Shown: positions 56,517 to 64,000, counted from the stretch's first letter. The stretch is DNA of 64,000 nt from Fistulifera solaris (GCA_030295235.1 AP026127.1:992001-1056000), one strand, 5' to 3'. Made by a program: numbers and translations. The notes: generated from the letters alone by a model not told the origin.

Positions 56517-57119
56517 TCATCCATTTACACGGTCTGCTTCCATCTTGTTTTCCGTCGCTTCGTCCACTTTTCCGCCATCGACATTGACCGAAGTACTTGT
56601 ATTGTCATTTTGCATGTATGTAACGGGAATCTTGCGAACACTGGCTTCCAGCTTCTTCACGTCTTTCGGCGCCATAACAATCAATACCCCGTCCTTCAAA
56701 TTCGCAGTCAAAGCATCTACGTCGACGCTGGGGTCAAGCAAGAAACGTTGTGTAAACTTCGATGACATACTGTGTCCATCTTCTTTCTCTTCGTGACTAC
56801 CTTTGATCGACAAGACTTTTCCATCATCTTCCAAGCTGACTTGAACGTCGTCTTGAGTCATGCCTGGCACTTCGACCGTAATCTTGAAGGTGTCCGTCTC
56901 ATCGGTGATCTCATATCGAGGATATGCCTGGCTGAAAAATTCACGATTCATTAGATTTTGGAGCTGCTGGTGTCGCTGATGGATCAGCGCACGAGTCGAG
57001 GTCGGGTAAAAGAAAGCACTGGTAGTCGGATCGCGCAGAACCAAATCGGATCCGAACAACCACGCACTCGTCATGATGGGCGATAGAGTGAGGAGTCCAA
57101 AGGCTGAGTTGAGCTTCAT
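56517..57119 (-). CDS. Small heat-shock protein (HSP20/alpha-crystallin) with signal peptide
   Basis: YEITDE..F.ITVEVPG...DVQV..E..VLSIKG...FTQRF.L...VD....ANLKDGVLIV.APK. Confidence 0.92.
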   Translation of the reverse strand: MKLNSAFGLLTLSPIMTSAWLFGSDLVLRDPTTSAFFYPTSTRALIHQRHQQLQNLMNREFFSQAYPRYEITDETDTFKITVEVPGMTQDDVQVSLEDDGKVLSIKGSHEEKEDGHSMSSKFTQRFLLDPSVDVDALTANLKDGVLIVMAPKDVKKLEASVRKIPVTYMQNDNTSTSVNVDGGKVDEATENKMEADRVNG

Positions 57120-58563
57120 TTGTCAGATCTCGTGGAGAGAACAATGTATTATCGTCGTTCAATGGTGAAATGAATTTTATGAGGACAGTGGGAAAGTTCG
57201 GTTTTGATTGCCATAGACCAAAAGTCGAAAGAAACTCAAGTATAGAATTCGAAAGAACAATTCAATCGTACTGGGACTCCAATGCCACCCGTCAAAATTT
57301 GATTGGCTCGCAGTGGGATTAAAATACAAAGCACCCTAGTTTGGCAATCATTGCTAGCCTGTTGATAGCCCCCCTAGTTCATTTTAACCAAACAACGTCG
57401 AGACGTGGAAGAAAGTCGATTGTAAGTAGCTCTGGATCATAGAGAAAGCAGCTGGAAATCACGCTCGTCATGAGCACTCCCTTTGCAAAGTTTCTCGCTG
57501 AGTTTGCCGGTTCAGTTGGCAGTCTGTCCCAAGCTCATGTTTCTTCAAATTCAAACTGTTGTACATAAGCATCGATCCCGCCTGTATTGAACGCGGTTTG
57601 ACCTTTCTTCGTAAAAAATCATAAGGACAGTTAAAAGGAAAGAGCGTCCGCCGAATGGGGAGGATAACCTTCAAAGCGACTTTCCCGGCAAACCTGACAG
57701 AAATATAGATGGTAAGGTTTCCTCGACGCAAAAACAAAGCTTTGAAGGATTGTTGAATCGTAGCATGCATTTGAAAAGATATAGAGAGATGACATCAGCT
57801 ACTAGAACAGCTGTCGCATTTCCAGAGAGGTACAAGGAGCACGGAGAGCTCCTGAAAATCAACGGAAGCCGCCTTACTTGGGTGATCAGGCTTTGAAACA
57901 TATAGCGAGGGACATCACTCGGGGTTTTGAAAACGCGTCACTTGGTGCATCCAATGAAGAAAAGATTGACAGGTCAAGTGGCCTCGCCGGTTTTGTGCTT
58001 TCGCCGAAAGATGGCAGTGGAGGGTAATGCCGTTGTTTTGCTTACAAAGGGTACTTCCATCTGCGGTTGACTAAGGTTTGCGATTCTACATCCGTCGAGA
58101 ACATACTTTGGCTTTTTGTTGAGTCAGGACGGGCTGTTTCATTCGAGAGCAGTGTCTCAGCCGACGATGTGCTCGGTGAAGCGGAAGGTTTCCTTTTACC
58201 TCTTCGTATACTACATTGACCCATGTTACTAGTGAGGGGTATGATTGGTTTTGAGGAAAGTTCCCCAACAGCATGGTTCGATGTTGGGTTATGTGTCGGA
58301 ACGTCCGCTGATACCGTAAAATCTTCCCCGAAGAGGTGATGTCGTTTCTGATTCTTGAACTATTATCTTCAGCTGCTTCCTTTGATCCTATATTGTAAGT
58401 TCATCAGACATCAGGGGTCGTTGAGTCGGTCAATCGCTTCTAAGGCTGGTTGGATTGGCTGTTTTTGTCGACTTTTTGTATGTTTTTGAAGTTCAACGGT
58501 CTATTTTATTTGGCTACACGGTGGAAGACGAAAAGAGAGTAAGTAAATGTATATTAGAATGCT

Positions 58564-59097
58564 TCAGCACTGCATAATCTGTTGATCTACGAACCTGTCT
58601 TCCGATGAAATCTGTATCGGCTTGTCGATTTGTTCGGTATCTTTCTGGACTACTTGCGATGAAGAGCATTCAACGACTGCAAAATCAGTGATGACATAGT
58701 TCCGAGCGCCGTCGGGGGTAAATTTACTCATATCAATTTCAATCCGGGTCGGAAATCCTTGATCGGAATATGTGTTGAAACATCGAGCGGCTCCGGATGA
58801 GGGACAGTTTCGGACGCATAATGAGTCGATCATATCCAAGAAATCATCAATGGTTTTGTCACCTTCTCCGCTCAAAACGCCATTACGAACTTGTACACGT
58901 TTTGACAAAGACGTTCCTTTCTGGAAGCCAGTGAAAGTGTACGAAAAGTCGTAACATGGCGGAGCTGCCCAAATAGCCTTCGCAGCCGACAAGGCTTCTG
59001 CTGATTGCTCGTAATTTTGGCACGGTTTGTCTTCCAGTTTCATGACTTGTCCTTCAGCGGCGATCGGGAGAAGCATGATCCAAGCGACCGACTTCAT
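58564..59097 (-). CDS. Secreted protein resembling DUF6174
   Basis: Signal peptide; A...W....YDFSY, VQVRNG, TIDDFL..I, Y...GFPT.I.ID....D...Y.ITDF. Confidence 0.6.
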   Translation of the reverse strand: MKSVAWIMLLPIAAEGQVMKLEDKPCQNYEQSAEALSAAKAIWAAPPCYDFSYTFTGFQKGTSLSKRVQVRNGVLSGEGDKTIDDFLDMIDSLCVRNCPSSGAARCFNTYSDQGFPTRIEIDMSKFTPDGARNYVITDFAVVECSSSQVVQKDTEQIDKPIQISSEDRFVDQQIMQC

Positions 59098-60345
59098 CGT
59101 TCTCGAACACAATGAATAGGGACATCCATTGTTTGCATAATGTATACGGAGTATTGTGGTCGTTCTCTTGCGTTGCGATGAACGCACACATTTTCCGCGA
59201 CGACTTATTGTCATTCTTCATTTTTTGCGCGCCGACGACAAAAAATAGAGACGCACGGAAACTGTTCACCCAATTGGCGCAGCCCGGCTAACAGAATTTG
59301 GATTTTGCGGACGACAAATTCGCTCCGGGTGCCGCGCGCTTGTTTCTATGATCTATTGAGTAGGCGTGTTGGCTGTGGATGAGGTGAGCGGTGCACTTGC
59401 AACTTGAAATCGAAAAGAACCGCCAAGGCGGACGGTGGAACAAACGACGGGCCAATGACGTACAATGGGGAGTGTAGAATAAAATAGTACGAGATTTCCG
59501 TTGACAGCCAAGTCCTTCTGCCGCCAAAGTGCCCGCAACAATGAGAAAGTTACGGCCTACGTAAGAACTACGTACAAAATGTACTACAAAACCAGTGGGA
59601 ATCCATGATGTTGCTCGGATTTCATCACCTCGACGACTTTTCTTCATAAAAATTTCTCGAGGTGAGTGAGCTCCAATTCCATCGTCTTATGTCGGCTCAG
59701 AGGAGTCCGACGACCCTTCATATCTTCGTTGTTGGTGATAATGCCATGTGGCTTGTATCCGAAGAGTAACTGAAGCTGAAAAGTCGGTGGGGTGGAGGAT
59801 TACAAATCGAGAATCGTCGCCTTATGAAGTGTTGCGGGTTTTGCGAGATCTGTGGCCTCGTTTTCTGCACCCCAAGTCATCCGAGACTGTAGAGTGATGC
59901 CAATGAGCAAAGACTCTAAGGCAATGACAGCCAGCCGCTTATTAATCTGCATCAAAAGTCGATGATATGGTCAGGGTACCGGTAGTCGTCGATCCTAAAA
60001 AGTTCTTCCCGGCTTTTTTCACTTGGGCGAGCGTGCTGCCGATGTTGCCTATTGCCCCTCAATACTCCAGCGTGCCGGCTGTCGTGCGACTCTCTCGTTA
60101 CGTTTGTGATCGTATCAGTGCAGGTGTGGCAAACAGATAGTTTCCCAACGTTTGTACAAAGCGCGCCCCATGGCCCGTGGTCATCGGAAGTTTCTTTTCC
60201 TCTCTTTGGCTACCAGAGTCACTCGTTTTGTGTACTCGTACTTCATATCTGATACTATGACGTCACATTACACCTATCTCAATCTCGCGTCTCCTCATTT
60301 TTTCCTCAGAACGAAAGCCAAACAGGTTCGTCAGAGTCATACAGC

Positions 60346-61572
60346 ATGAAATTTGGAAAGAATCTCCGGGAGAAAACGTTGAAAGAATGGCGCTTCTATG
60401 CTGTCGATTACAAAGCGCTCAAGAAGACGATCAAGAAAGATGACAGCGAGCAATTCTTTCGTCTCCTCCATGAATCCGAAGTCAAGTTATCCAGATTCTA
60501 TCATGATAGAGAATCATGGGCATTTGATTACATGCAGACTCTCCTTGAGCGCGTACAAGCACTTCGCGAGGCTATGGATTCCCAGCAAGACGCGCCCACA
60601 GAGTCCGAGTCTTCTTCCTCCGAGTCGTCCGTGGCGTCTTCGGAAGAAGACAATGCTTCGGTGGCATCCTCCGTCGAAATGGATCGCGGCTTCACCAAGC
60701 TTTGCGTAAAAGCTCAATCGTTTGGTACGAAACAGGCCTGGTTGAAAGAGGAATACCGACGGATGGGAAGCAGCAAACAATTCAAATCATTCATTTACGC
60801 AAAGAAGTCGCTTGCTACTTTTGATCGCGAACTCGGCCTGCTGATTGAATTCCTCGAACTCAACAAAACAGCCTTCAGCAAGATTTTGAAGAAGTTTGAC
60901 AAGTGCACTGGATCAGCAATGCGCGAAGAAAAGATGAAAGGCATTTTGGAAGCAAACGCATTCTTGTCCGGAAAGACTCTATCCGAGTTGAAAGACCGCG
61001 TCGGTCTTTTGATTGACGAAGTGAATAGTTTGAAGCCTCAGCTTCCGGAAGGATGGGAGAATCGAAAAGTATACACCATTGGCTGCTTCGACTTGTTTCA
61101 TCGAGGTCACGAAAATGTATTGCTCTCGCTCCGTGAGTTCGGGTATTATGTGGTCGCTGGAATCCACGACGACGACTCCTACTTCAAACTGAAAAACAAG
61201 GACGCGATTGAGGATCTTGAAACTCGTATCAATAATGTCAAACCATTTGTTGATCAAATTTTTGTTATACCGTCCACGGATCCGCTGATTTATATCAAAG
61301 CCATGGTTAGCGAGCAAGATATTGCCACTGGCTCTTGCTGCTACGCTCGTGGAGACGATATGTTGGACTTCCCTGGTCGCGAATGGGTAGAAACCGTCAT
61401 GCCGGTCCATTTCGTTCCTCGGACGGAAGCCTGCAGCAGCACTTTGATTCGTACTATTTACCACGCCGGAGACGAGGAGTTGCGCAAGAAAGCAGCTTTT
61501 GCAAAAACGCGATACGACGGGAAGCCTATCGATGAAGACGGAAATGTCCTCAACTTGAAAGTTGCGGCGTAG
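60346..61572 (+). CDS. SPX domain - cytidylyltransferase (HxGH nucleotidyltransferase) fusion
   Basis: MKFGKNL...EW..Y..DYKALKK and LNKTAFSKILKKFDK (SPX); GCFDLFHRGH, GIHDD, RGDD, RTEACSSTLIR (CTP_transf_like). Confidence 0.92.
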   Translation: MKFGKNLREKTLKEWRFYAVDYKALKKTIKKDDSEQFFRLLHESEVKLSRFYHDRESWAFDYMQTLLERVQALREAMDSQQDAPTESESSSSESSVASSEEDNASVASSVEMDRGFTKLCVKAQSFGTKQAWLKEEYRRMGSSKQFKSFIYAKKSLATFDRELGLLIEFLELNKTAFSKILKKFDKCTGSAMREEKMKGILEANAFLSGKTLSELKDRVGLLIDEVNSLKPQLPEGWENRKVYTIGCFDLFHRGHENVLLSLREFGYYVVAGIHDDDSYFKLKNKDAIEDLETRINNVKPFVDQIFVIPSTDPLIYIKAMVSEQDIATGSCCYARGDDMLDFPGREWVETVMPVHFVPRTEACSSTLIRTIYHAGDEELRKKAAFAKTRYDGKPIDEDGNVLNLKVAA

Positions 61573-61686: not shown

Positions 61687-62739
61687 TCATCTTAATTCTA
61701 TATCCACAATTTGTTTAGTTGTGCACTTAATATCATCTTGGGTCTCCTTTTCAACACATCCGTGCCCAGGATGACGTCTGGTGATTTGACTTGCTTGTCT
61801 AAAGCAGCCAGTCCAGGAACTTGACCCACATACAGAACCGACTCTCCAAACATAGATACTTCGACTGCGCTTTTTGTCGGGTAAAGCTTGGTCGGTTTGC
61901 CGTCCCCCTCCCATAATTGTCAATACTTGAGAGTCGTTCTGTGAAAACAGTGACGTGAAAGGATTTCTCGACTTGTTAGCCTTGTCGTTTCGGACATCAA
62001 TATTGGCTCTCTTGGCTGCATCTGGATGAATAATCGTAATGGGGGATCCTGTATCGAGCAAGGCTGTGAGCTCGACATTGTTGATAGTGATTTGTATCAA
62101 GGGAAGTTGTGTGATCGGTTGACGTTGTAGGGGAATCATTTGTAGCCCCTCCTTATCTGAAGCGTTTGTTTCACTGAGAAATCGGAATTGTCGATTCTCC
62201 CAATCAAATTCGACGCCACCAGGAAAGCATTGCAAAAAGGCCAAACTGAGTACACCGGCGGCGGCTGGATTTGAAACTGGCAATACCGAAGCCGTCAGAT
62301 CTATCATGAACAAATCAGGCCCCATACCATCAAGCTGTGTATCTCCCAAAAGGAAGGTTTCTCCACCGGGTATGGACCCTGTGGCCGATACACCTGGCAA
62401 GGCAAATTGTCCTGTCGATTTCAATTGCAATTCGGTGACGACTGGTCCTTGAATTGTGTTCGTATTGGCGGCAGTATCTACCACAAAATCCAAACTAACA
62501 CCGGTCTCATTTCGTGAGCGCTGTGATGTTGTACTCAAATTAGGAAACCTTAGAGCAAGGCAAGGATAAGGGCCAATGAATTTCAGAGGAGCGGAAACGG
62601 CCATAATATCATGCTCCATTGAAGGAGGGCCCGAGAAGATTGCCAAGCCTGCCCTATTCAAACGTGTGACGAAAGCAGGTCCGAAAGCGAGAACGGGCGC
62701 TATAAGATATACAATGTTTACGACGTAGAGGATACGCAT
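61687..62739 (-). CDS. Two-lobed retropepsin-like aspartyl protease with plastid-type presequence; frameshift near the 3' end
   Basis: FVVDTAA..GVLSLAFL and ALLDTGS..ILGTDVL (last motif in the shifted frame); signal peptide ending VLA-F. Confidence 0.8.
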   Translation of the reverse strand: MRILYVVNIVYLIAPVLAFGPAFVTRLNRAGLAIFSGPPSMEHDIMAVSAPLKFIGPYPCLALRFPNLSTTSQRSRNETGVSLDFVVDTAANTNTIQGPVVTELQLKSTGQFALPGVSATGSIPGGETFLLGDTQLDGMGPDLFMIDLTASVLPVSNPAAAGVLSLAFLQCFPGGVEFDWENRQFRFLSETNASDKEGLQMIPLQRQPITQLPLIQITINNVELTALLDTGSPITIIHPDAAKRANIDVRNDKANKSRNPFTSLFSQNDSQVLTIMGGGRQTDQALPDKKRSRSIYVWRVGSVCGSSSWTGCFRQASQITRRHPGHGCVEKETQDDIKCTTKQIVDIELR

Positions 62740-63369
62740 CTTGTGTTGTCTTGCTGGTGGTGTAAGTTTCAAACAGAATGGCTTTGTTAATTGTGAGATC
62801 AATGTTATTGATGCGGCTTTTTTTATTGTGAGAAAAAATGCGAAACGCGTGTGTGACTCAGTCGTGTTGACTGGTGACTGTCGAGGGTGAGTCAAAATCC
62901 TGACCGTTAATGACGATGTGGAAGGTCCATGATTGACCCTAGACTGAGAAAATCAAGAACCTAATTATTTTTCTAAGGATTCCTATCGACTTGATGTAAG
63001 TTAGCTATAACGCGGCTGGCGGAACTGGGATGGAAGCGCGTCAACGTACTTGCTAACTCGTCAAATCGAAGTTGGAAGCTAAAAGGCGGCCTTCACGAGA
63101 GCAATGTCCCACGCGACGAAACAGCAAAATCGGCATGGTAGCGGCAGCTTAATCAAATCTATCCCTTTAAGCTTTCCTTGCGATTTTAAAAAGAGCGATT
63201 GAAAGTTGTGAGGACTGATACGAATATTGGACTTCGATATTTGTGCATGCCCCAACTCATCATCAAAGTTGCTACGTTCGTGGTCAAATTCATACGATAC
63301 GCAATAGAATCCACAGGATCTAAGCAACAGAAGCGTTTGGGTAATTCAGCCAGCGATAAGATGTCAGCA

Positions 63370-64000
63370 TCAGATTGTTGTCAATTGATTCAAAACAGAA
63401 ATTTTTTGTCGCTCGTAGTGCACACGTCCTCAACATACAAACTCCGTCGGATCATTTCCGATCGCGTCTTCCTCTCGTAACCTCTCCAGTTCTTCGCGAC
63501 ATGCTGGCCACAATCGTCCTGCAGCTCGCTCTTCCAGTTGCTTTACAAGAACTTCCACAGCACCGCCATTTGGTGGAACACCATGATGCAGAACATTAAA
63601 TGGCAACTCATCAGATGGTTCCCAGTAGCGGAACATGCGAGCAGCGCGTTCCATTCCACGGCGAAGTGATGAAATCTGTTCGGCTGTTACTTCCTGCAGT
63701 CGTTCCTCCAATCCGTATCCATGACACGTTGCGTTGTAGTGCTCGTGTTCGTATTCAGATGCATTCCAACGTAACGAAAACTCGCTCGGATCCAACCTCC
63801 ATTCATTCTCTTTGGGCAGATTTCGGCCGAAAACGGCCAAACAAAGTCGTGGGATAAAATCACCGGAATGCATCCAGAAAAGATAGCATCAAACATGCGC
63901 TTGGCGGAAGCGGTGTCGCCACCAGGGCAAGGACAAAATGTTGCCAATCTCATGGTGATCCAATAGGGTTGCTGCAATTGTTGACGCAAAGGTAGAAACG
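63370..64000 (-). CDS. Exostosin/GT47 glycosyltransferase, 3' part (frameshifted; continues beyond window)
   Basis: ATFCPCPGGDTASAKRMFDAIFSGCIPVILS. The 3' end coordinate is approximate. Confidence 0.85.

Follow-up and report, generated by a model that had tools for sequence, protein, structure and literature searches.

An SPX domain fused to a TagD-like cytidylyltransferase in the diatom Fistulifera solaris: a candidate link between phosphate sensing and CDP-alcohol synthesis

In a 64,000-nucleotide stretch of the Fistulifera solaris genome (GCA_030295235.1 AP026127.1:992001-1056000, hereafter the window), one gene encodes a 408-residue protein, P0001, in which an N-terminal SPX domain is joined in frame to a single cytidylyltransferase-like (CT) domain. 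The explanation that we favor, with a probability of about 55%, is that the SPX domain, when it carries an inositol phosphate (InsP), licenses a phosphate-spending CTP:phospho-alcohol cytidylyltransferase, the CDP-alcohol product of which goes to a PgsA-like transferase outside the Kennedy pathway. P0001 would then be a soluble enzyme with an SPX domain that binds inositol (pyro)phosphates, and the bound form would permit CDP-alcohol synthesis only when phosphate is affordable. By analogy with VTC, the direction of allostery would be activation, and transcription would reinforce the licensing. A dedicated PgsA-like CDP-alcohol phosphotransferase (CAPT; loci L084 and L083 of this genome, Phatr 43205 in Phaeodactylum) would turn the CDP-alcohol into a phospholipid or a phosphodiester. 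Four points are new here. The SPX-CT proteins form a single clade that spans diatoms, Cafeteria, Monosiga and giant-virus copies devoid of the sensor residues. Their enzyme half belongs to an unstudied TagD-like clade, apart from the ethanolamine- and choline-phosphate cytidylyltransferases (ECT and CCT) of the Kennedy pathway. The CAPT to which CTs of this clade are fused in oyster, Lingula, sponge and rotifer has its diatom ortholog in a gene of its own, with a dead CT domain. Transcripts of the Phaeodactylum ortholog of P0001 drop 6-14-fold without phosphorus in one study, though not significantly in another, and increase about 6- to 100-fold without nitrogen.

The fusion is real, and neither chance nor local mis-assembly accounts for it, because 331 homologs were found among 6608 candidates, a second copy with 98% identity is present on another contig of the same genome, and both halves have clear fold matches. 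The reading frame is free of internal stops, so no intron is required. The SPX match in Pfam (PF03105) has an E-value of 1.8e-20 and 74.7 bits, versus a curated cut-off of 27.8, and begins at residue 1, while CTP_transf_like (PF01467) matches in one stretch, residues 243-370, with an E-value of 6.6e-11, above its curated cut-off. Both domains are found in all of the best 120 of the 331 homologs, of which the named ones are almost all from diatoms; the 90% cluster of P0001 itself includes a named Fistulifera solaris protein. This Pfam architecture search confirms the first-pass annotation, which had described an SPX domain continuing in frame into a single HxGH/RTxxxSS nucleotidyltransferase. 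The two genomic copies differ in 51 synonymous and 9 non-synonymous codons, and all nine of the latter are located in the SPX half and none in the CT. Contigs from sequencing runs contain no indel or joint within the open reading frame (ORF), and no single piece spans it; they extend over intergenic DNA too and give no information on expression. When shorter forms were looked for, 57 proteins (52-95% identity) turned up that are fragment-like in appearance; longer forms turned up only in the search of representatives described below, no search aimed at them having been made. The ESM Atlas returned only generic CT clusters for P0001. An AlphaFold2 model calculated from a 61-sequence alignment has a mean pLDDT of 76.6 and a pTM of 0.69, with pLDDT values below 50 at residues 84-125, 338-344 and 353-364.

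The architecture itself is already in print, although only in a supplementary table. Zhang 2021 (PMC8233357, Supplementary Table 1) lists Phatr3_J54257, 'PtSPX2', as 'SPX-Cytidylyltransferase like', which corrects the first-pass annotation on this point. The main text of that paper nowhere contains the string 'cytidyl', four SPX subfamilies are all that a later paper recognizes in Phaeodactylum (PMC12388464), and PMC7283521, PMC12168105 and PMC12396336 treat other SPX genes. In CC-licensed PMC and bioRxiv main texts, we found no functional study that deals with this gene or with the fusion. PtSPX2 has the same architecture as P0001 but is only listed, and we found neither a mutant nor an assay for it, and likewise no substrate, no phylogeny and no partner.

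Judged by its residues, the ligand site of the P0001 SPX domain is intact. As described in PMC9911596, the InsP site of Vtc4 consists of Y22, K26 and K133 in the phosphate-binding cluster (PBC) and of K129, K132 and K136 in the lysine cluster (KSC). Their counterparts in P0001 are Y22, K26 and K183 (PBC) and K179, K182 and K186 (KSC), with the same spacing. The two motifs named in the first-pass annotation are thus present, as Y22-KAL-K26-K and K179-IL-K182-K183-FD-K186. K179, K182, K183 and K186 are kept in 120, 121, 120 and 120 of the 121 SPX-CT family members, respectively, and 120 of the 121 have all six PBC/KSC residues. Seven of the eight divergent cellular members that were checked also keep all six; the remaining one differs by a single K to R change. 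The C-terminal helices of the domain carry in addition a family-specific basic stretch, in which K134, R138, Y151, K154 and R161 are invariant (61/61), and the model suggests that the Ser/Glu-rich insertion at residues 82-125 is probably disordered. The model has the three-helix-bundle fold, and its comparison with the SPX domain of XPR1 (8TYV) gave a Z-score of 17.4 and a root-mean-square deviation (rmsd) of 1.5 over 150 aligned residues. Vtc4, Gde1, XPR1 and plant SPX1 have this fold as well (Z 17.1-17.4, rmsd 1.5-2.2), with an identical set of six ligand residues, but P0001 differs from all of them in that its effector is an anabolic nucleotidyltransferase. Gde1 degrades glycerophosphodiesters, whereas P0001 would spend phosphate on the synthesis of a phosphodiester. 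By these similarities, the P0001 SPX domain is predicted to bind inositol (pyro)phosphates, and binding may change the activity of the effector.

The CT half appears to be catalytically intact as well. H252, H255, K283, R359, T360, S364 and S365 are kept in 121/121 family members, R335 and D338 are invariant in both the family (121/121) and the wider clade described below (19/19), and all 11 scored residues, which include HxGH, K283/K285, R335-G-D-D338 and RTExxSS, are present in 120/121. As the six SPX residues and the 11 CT residues are each complete in 120 of the 121 members, both halves look functional. K283 would be in the position of the catalytic lysine of CCT. The motif R359-TEAC-S364-S365 (RTEACSST) is a variant of the signature RTEG(I/V)ST(S/T) of GCT, CCT and ECT, described in PMC6060094 together with the role of the CCT/GCT lysine. 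The motif and the CAPT and LicD fusion partners of the relatives argue for CTP as the nucleotide. The C-terminal tail with its AAFAKTRYDGKP core, a motif present in 4 of 14 SPX-clade proteins versus 0 of 13 CAPT-CT proteins checked, is a candidate regulatory element.

A comparison of the CT model with known structures does not single out one enzyme. HldC (Z 12.1, rmsd 1.9, 109 aligned residues), the GCTs of S. aureus and B. subtilis (for the latter Z 11.5, rmsd 2.7, 121 residues) and the Fom1 CyTase (Z 11.3, rmsd 2.7, 113 residues) are tied at Z-scores of 11.3-12.1, and CCT and ECT come next (Z of about 10). When the clade profile was run against the PDB, B. subtilis GCT was the best single-domain match, with 72.6 bits over the whole domain, compared to 45.2 bits for the N-terminal domain of ECT (ECT-N) and about 30 for CCT. 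P0001 shares with TagD/TarD (1COZ, 2B7L) the single HxGH domain, the K-x-K pair, the GDD triplet (G336-D337-D338) and RTExxS, but it is only about 23-30% identical to them, belongs to a separate clade, has an invariant R335, a TDP motif and an N-terminal SPX domain, and is eukaryotic. The fold and both nucleotide-binding motifs are also common to ECT (PCYT2) and CCT. However, P0001 contains one PF01467 stretch and not the tandem CT domains of ECT, no membrane-binding helix is evident in its model, and it lacks the substrate-phosphate His and the choline aromatic box of CCT (H709, W692 and Y714 in PfCCT); by profile alignment, Arg335 replaces the His and the T-D-P motif the Trp. P0001 would thus be GCT-type in its working, yet it is not a TagD.

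The relatives of this domain point to its product. A profile search over 1.84 billion representatives gave 100 proteins at E-values up to 1e-30. Pfam scans of 79 of the 150 listed representative matches found 16 SPX+CT, 6 CT+CAPT and 6 CT+LicD proteins, and the N-terminal parts of nine more were tied to the CAPT group by BLAST. Among 30 clusters looked up, two named SPX-CT carriers are not diatoms, namely Cafeteria and Monosiga brevicollis, a choanoflagellate, and the architecture is hence not peculiar to diatoms; CAPT-CT is carried, among named organisms, by Lingula, Sycon, Adineta and Crassostrea, with Nutomonas having a degenerate form. A quick IQ-TREE phylogeny of 73 CT domains was evaluated by SH-aLRT only, with long branches flagged. 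In this tree, the SPX-linked CTs group in a single clade (19 rows, SH-aLRT 98), and a single origin of the fusion is for this reason likely. Together with the CAPT, LicD and decarboxylase fusions they make up a wider clade (53 rows, SH-aLRT 83). The four TagD-type rows form a clade of their own (SH-aLRT 99), and these and the genome's own ECT-N and CCT-like domains (SH-aLRT 90) are outside the wider clade; the RfaE-like viral rows are outside the clade as well. Since the relatives of the CT are fused to CAPT and LicD, the product of P0001 is most likely a CDP-headgroup.

The nearest relatives without SPX are the invertebrate and protist CAPT-CT proteins (45% identity over about 130 residues, E-value 1e-30). 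These proteins (Crassostrea LOC111099500, Lingula, Sycon, Adineta, Nutomonas) share the clade signature with P0001, but they have a membrane transferase where P0001 has SPX, they lack the C-terminal tail, and 12 of the 13 checked have Tyr in place of Arg in the RTEG motif; their record names suggest that they are uncharacterized. In four protist proteins of the Nutomonas type (P0233, P0240, P0243 and P0248) the CAPT motif looks degenerate and the CT is intact, and P0248 carries two CAPT-like domains. Two giant-virus contigs, L039 and L041, encode SPX-CT copies with 11/11 CT residues, in which only 1/6 and 0/6 of the sensor residues, respectively, are found. In the L039 locus, LicD is directly upstream of SPX-CT, and a potassium-channel-like gene and a ceramidase are nearby. 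An Asgard (Helarchaeota) locus, L092, contains a wider-clade CT fused to phosphatidylserine decarboxylase, and the next gene is PssA/archaetidylserine-synthase-like. In an alphaproteobacterial metagenome-assembled genome, a related ORF of smaller length, L093, is found near a contig end. Bacterial neighborhoods were of little help: among the matches listed, L092 and L093 are the only ones of 80 genome loci that score clade-like (about 137 bits; the next scores 86), and 15 of 20 plasmid matches fall under a gene annotated as tagD. In four divergent family members, P0215, P0220, P0224 and P0192, the RGDD region or the sensor is eroded, and HxGH is missing from P0192 too; these are possibly pseudo-enzyme paralogs or poor gene models.

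The other cytidylyltransferases of the genome narrow the role of P0001 further. Of 16 candidates scored, 13 match PF01467. They include the SPX-CT pair, a two-domain ECT pair and a CEPT-like/CCT-like fusion pair, together with others that resemble adenylyltransferases; these labels are our own reading. As the ECT and CCT-like genes are separate and outside the clade, and ECT is regulated in the opposite direction (see below), P0001 by its sequence is not the bulk Kennedy enzyme for phosphatidylcholine (PC) or phosphatidylethanolamine (PE). The proposal of CDP-headgroup synthesis in the first-pass annotation is supported by the fusions to CAPT and LicD, but not in the form of a bulk PC/PE enzyme.

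There are 12 PF01066 matches in the genome, plus the CEPT-like pair. The invertebrate CAPT profile scores 83.8 bits with L084 and 14 bits with the next CAPT gene of the genome, and the reverse search agrees. L084 has an intact CAPT motif and a fold nearest to PgsA (Z 14.2, rmsd 2.6, 158 aligned residues); its C-terminal CT has the fold of ECT (Z 13.4, rmsd 2.4, 104 aligned residues) but is dead, with HxGH missing in 121/121 proteins of this type and the lysine loop deleted, whereas a VDEVI dimer-type motif is kept. Named ones among its 206 homologs are nearly all from diatoms, and the Phaeodactylum ortholog is Phatr 43205. Sequence comparison identifies L084 and its homeolog L083 as orthologs of the membrane part of the CAPT-CT protein found in invertebrates. 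Because animals fuse CAPT to a CT of the same wider clade, it is suggested that the L084-type transferase consumes the SPX-CT product, a metabolic link to which we give somewhat less than an even chance. The idea that the dead CT of L084 is the lost half of the SPX-CT clade was rejected as this domain is ECT/CCT-derived. A complex prediction for residues 230-408 of P0001 with the dead CT, folded without alignments, scored 0.00 and was used neither way. In the assembly, the reading frame of L083 is broken into two. The CEPT-like domain of the other fusion, L007, has a degenerate-looking CAPT motif and no PF01066 match, and its second copy, L006, is also split over two frames. L007 (dead-looking CAPT, live CT) and L084 (live CAPT, dead CT) could be complementary halves of one complex.

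Expression data are available for the Phaeodactylum tricornutum ortholog 54257, the assignment of which to this family relies on the published architecture and on the published forward primer for quantitative PCR (qPCR), which encodes ESVMPV, a motif found in 107/121 family members. In phosphorus (P) starvation its log2 change was -2.56 at 48 h and -3.81 at 72 h, i.e. 6-14-fold down, and in nitrogen (N) starvation it was +2.50 and +2.63 (PMC5825098 supplements). A separate study reported a 103-fold increase without N by qPCR and a change from 6.3 to 354 in reads per kilobase per million (RPKM), whereas ECT 40163 and PtSPX fall under this condition (PMC3662598). ECT rises without P in Phaeodactylum, opposite to 54257. 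At 48 h, 54257 is among 18 genes that are oppositely regulated by P and N; glycerol-3-phosphate dehydrogenase 36821 moves with it and the glycerophosphodiesterase-type gene GDPD 44900 moves against it (PMC5825098). The betaine-lipid synthase candidate 42872 and SQD2, among 59 oppositely regulated genes at 72 h, also move against it (PMC5825098). The first-pass annotation had expected phospholipid sparing under P limitation, with which the repression of 54257 in one study agrees, although a second study found no significant change. The largest expression change of 54257 is its induction by N starvation, which had not been foreseen.

Within the favored scheme, glycerol-3-phosphate, giving CDP-glycerol and an N-free headgroup, is our leading guess for the substrate because of the GCT-like residues, the co-regulated glycerol-3-phosphate dehydrogenase and the absence of N from the headgroup; even if the rest of the scheme holds, this guess falls somewhat short of an even chance. 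A soluble store of glycerophosphoglycerol was considered as the product, but this possibility is weakened as the metabolite falls in both P and N starvation; its drop in P-stressed diatoms is described in PMC3315573. A still broader proposal is that of an old, overlooked eukaryotic two-step pathway, in which this CT clade makes a CDP-alcohol such as CDP-glycerol and a dedicated PgsA-like transferase attaches it to a lipid or an alcohol, so that an N-free phospholipid arises independently of the CDP-DAG and Kennedy routes. Such a pathway would be fused in invertebrates, split in diatoms, InsP-gated in diatoms, bicosoecids and choanoflagellates, and stripped of its sensor by giant viruses. We regard this proposal as doubtful.

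A number of observations weigh against the favored scheme. P0001 scores 28.6 bits with the TagD model TIGR01518, far below the cut-off of 165.4, and by fold HldC is tied with GCT. The tree is a quick one without bootstrap, and the support for the wider clade is modest. The dead CT of L084 scores 40 bits with the genome's own ECT-N versus -1 with P0001, and a domain of such ECT/CCT ancestry need not dock the SPX-CT enzyme. Phatr 43205 responds weakly, with log2 changes of -0.6/-0.8 without P and a 1.7-fold increase without N (PMC5825098, PMC3662598). All expression data come from a diatom other than F. solaris, and in one of the data sets the change of 54257 without P is not significant (log2 -0.56, adjusted p 0.055; PMC8233357). 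Nitrate reductase, nitrite reductases and a nitrate transporter share the pattern of 54257 at 72 h (PMC5825098), and 54257 may therefore simply belong to the N regulon. Finally, phosphate, glycerol-3-phosphate and glycerophosphoglycerol fall without N as well (PMC4588885 supplement), which weakens the notion that N starvation means P surplus.

Four rival explanations were considered. The version given by the first-pass annotation, an additional amino-alcohol cytidylyltransferase (phosphoethanolamine, phosphocholine or phosphoserine-type) that serves PE/PC-like lipids under SPX control, draws on human ECT as the best phmmer match in the PDB (E-value 4e-12, summed over two domains), on a Seminavis homolog record auto-named ECT, on the wider-clade CT that forms a fusion with phosphatidylserine decarboxylase and has a PssA-like gene as its neighbor, and on the LicD partners, which often transfer phosphocholine (PMC6697681). 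However, a two-domain ECT as well as a CCT-like enzyme are already encoded in the genome, both outside the SPX-CT clade, the substrate-phosphate His of CCT/ECT is replaced by an invariant Arg and the aromatic residue that follows strand 3 is missing (roles in PMC6060094), and a strong induction by N starvation would fit an N-containing headgroup poorly. We consider this explanation unlikely, even though it is the best of the alternatives. The next in rank, also unlikely, is that P0001 acts mainly as an N-P cross-talk node: its SPX domain would inhibit the enzyme instead of activating it, or would have a different protein, e.g. a PHR-type factor, as its binding partner, and its expression would track the N-scavenging regulon and not P surplus. 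The expression pattern shared with nitrate assimilation and scavenging genes, the fall of free phosphate in N starvation, the P-starvation data set without change (PMC8233357) and the existence of inhibitory SPX domains, e.g. in Vtc2 (PMC10167327), are all consistent with it, and an inhibitory sensor explains as easily as an activating one why giant viruses kept the enzyme and lost the sensor. On the other hand, the CT is more conserved than SPX, which argues for catalysis as the core function, and the microarray study shows strong repression in P starvation (PMC5825098).

A role in glycan modification rather than in lipid synthesis, as an adenylyl- or sugar-nucleotidyltransferase of the HldC/RfaE type, would agree with the tie of HldC for the best fold match, with the 33.5 bits scored by the rfaE_dom_II model (TIGR02199), and with the viral and phage relatives that sit with LicD and glycosyltransferases. 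Yet that score falls far short of the 181.5 bits set as the RfaE cut-off, the RfaE-like viral rows are outside the clade, and CAPT and LicD enzymes take CDP donors. We hold such a role to be very unlikely; a route by way of LicD from a CDP-alcohol donor to a glycan acceptor is possible. The RTExxSS motif, moreover, is a cytidylyltransferase signature (PMC6060094). The slimmest chance of all is that of phosphonate activation, with aminoethylphosphonate as the substrate and Fom1 CyTase, a near-tied fold match, as the model. Molluscs make phosphonolipids. Bacterial PF01467 domains are often fused to phosphoenolpyruvate (PEP) mutase (PMC6697681), but P0001 carries no such fusion. The search for PF13714 in the genome, in which the best candidates were scored, gave at least 6 matches, apparently two homeologous gene pairs; L067 and L069, one from each pair, lack the PEP-mutase motif EDKxxxxxNS (PMC6697681) and have KxCGH, a motif of the isocitrate-lyase family. 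Hence, self-made aminoethylphosphonate, one of the substrates named in the first-pass annotation, is unlikely, and a scavenging role should be induced in P starvation, not repressed.

Phytoplankton swap phospholipids for P-free lipids and thereby shift the N:P ratio of the ocean. To our knowledge, a direct switch on the synthesis side of this swap has not been established. If the broader two-step pathway holds, P0001 would be an InsP-gated, lipid-building enzyme and the counterpart of this swap, active at low N:P and inactive at high N:P. An SPX domain on a biosynthetic CT offers one soluble 46-kDa protein in which inositol-pyrophosphate gating of phosphate spending on lipids can be tested, knockouts are routine in Phaeodactylum (gene IDs 54257 and 43205), and the viral form shows the consequence of sensor loss. 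Diatoms have this unstudied enzyme pair in common with oysters, brachiopods and sponges as well as rotifers. What turns the gene into a concrete lead that can be tested is its clade, together with the fusion in animals, the candidate partner, the viral copies that lack the sensor, and an expression that rises without N and falls without P. The positions of the features are given in Table 1.

Table 1. Positions of the SPX-CT gene, its parts, related loci and neighboring genes (window numbering unless a locus is named)
Feature	Position	Strand	Basis or remark
SPX-cytidylyltransferase gene (P0001)	60346..61572	+	single open frame, 408 residues, ATG to TAG; Pfam and homologs; same family as Phaeodactylum PtSPX2 / Phatr 54257 by published architecture and primer motif
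SPX N-terminal helices, residues 1-81	60346..60588	+	Pfam, model helices, conservation
Phosphate-binding-cluster residues Y22, K26	60409-60411, 60421-60423	+	kept in 121/121 family members
Ser/Glu-rich variable insertion within SPX, residues 82-125	60589..60720	+	low pLDDT; alignment shows no conservation
SPX C-terminal helices, residues 126-228	60721..61029	+	alignment, model
Lysine cluster K179-x-x-K182-K183-x-x-K186	60880..60903	+	spacing as Vtc4 K129/K132/K133/K136
Rossmann-fold HxGH CT domain, single, residues 240-373	61063..61464	+	PF01467 and fold matches
HxGH motif H252-R-G-H255	61099..61110	+	both histidines in 121/121
K283-x-K285	61192..61200	+	aligns with B. subtilis GCT K44/K46; kept in 121/121 and 120/121
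Clade signature R335-G-D-D338	61348..61359	+	Arg at the ECT/CCT histidine position
RTExxSST motif, residues 359-366	61420..61443	+	variant of the GCT/CCT/ECT signature
Conserved C-terminal tail, AAFAKTRYDGKP core	61465..61569	+	alignment; also in Monosiga-cluster protein P0483
PgsA-like CAPT with dead C-terminal CT	L084:613-1809 (G000 C5 ~593530-594730)	-	C6 homeolog L083
CEPT-like membrane domain fused to intact CCT-like CT	L007:388-1938 (G000 C1/C2; L006)	+	
Giant-virus SPX-CT copy	L039:4455-5426	+	
Giant-virus SPX-CT copy	L041:4455-5429	+	
Asgard CT-decarboxylase fusion	L092:4980-7163	+	
Shorter related ORF, alphaproteobacterial	L093:4971-5762	+	
HSP20 gene	56517-57122	-	
DUF6174-like gene	58564-59217	-	apparent signal peptide
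Aspartyl-protease-domain gene	61687-62952	-	
Coding sequence in two overlapping frames	63430-64000	-	runs off the window end

No link to SPX-CT was seen for the HSP20 gene, the DUF6174-like gene or the aspartyl-protease-domain gene among its neighbors in the window; the last of these ends 115 bases from the SPX-CT stop codon, on the opposite strand. The coding sequence at the edge of the window possibly contains an intron or a frameshift, and it may encode an exostosin-type glycosyltransferase, which it resembles.

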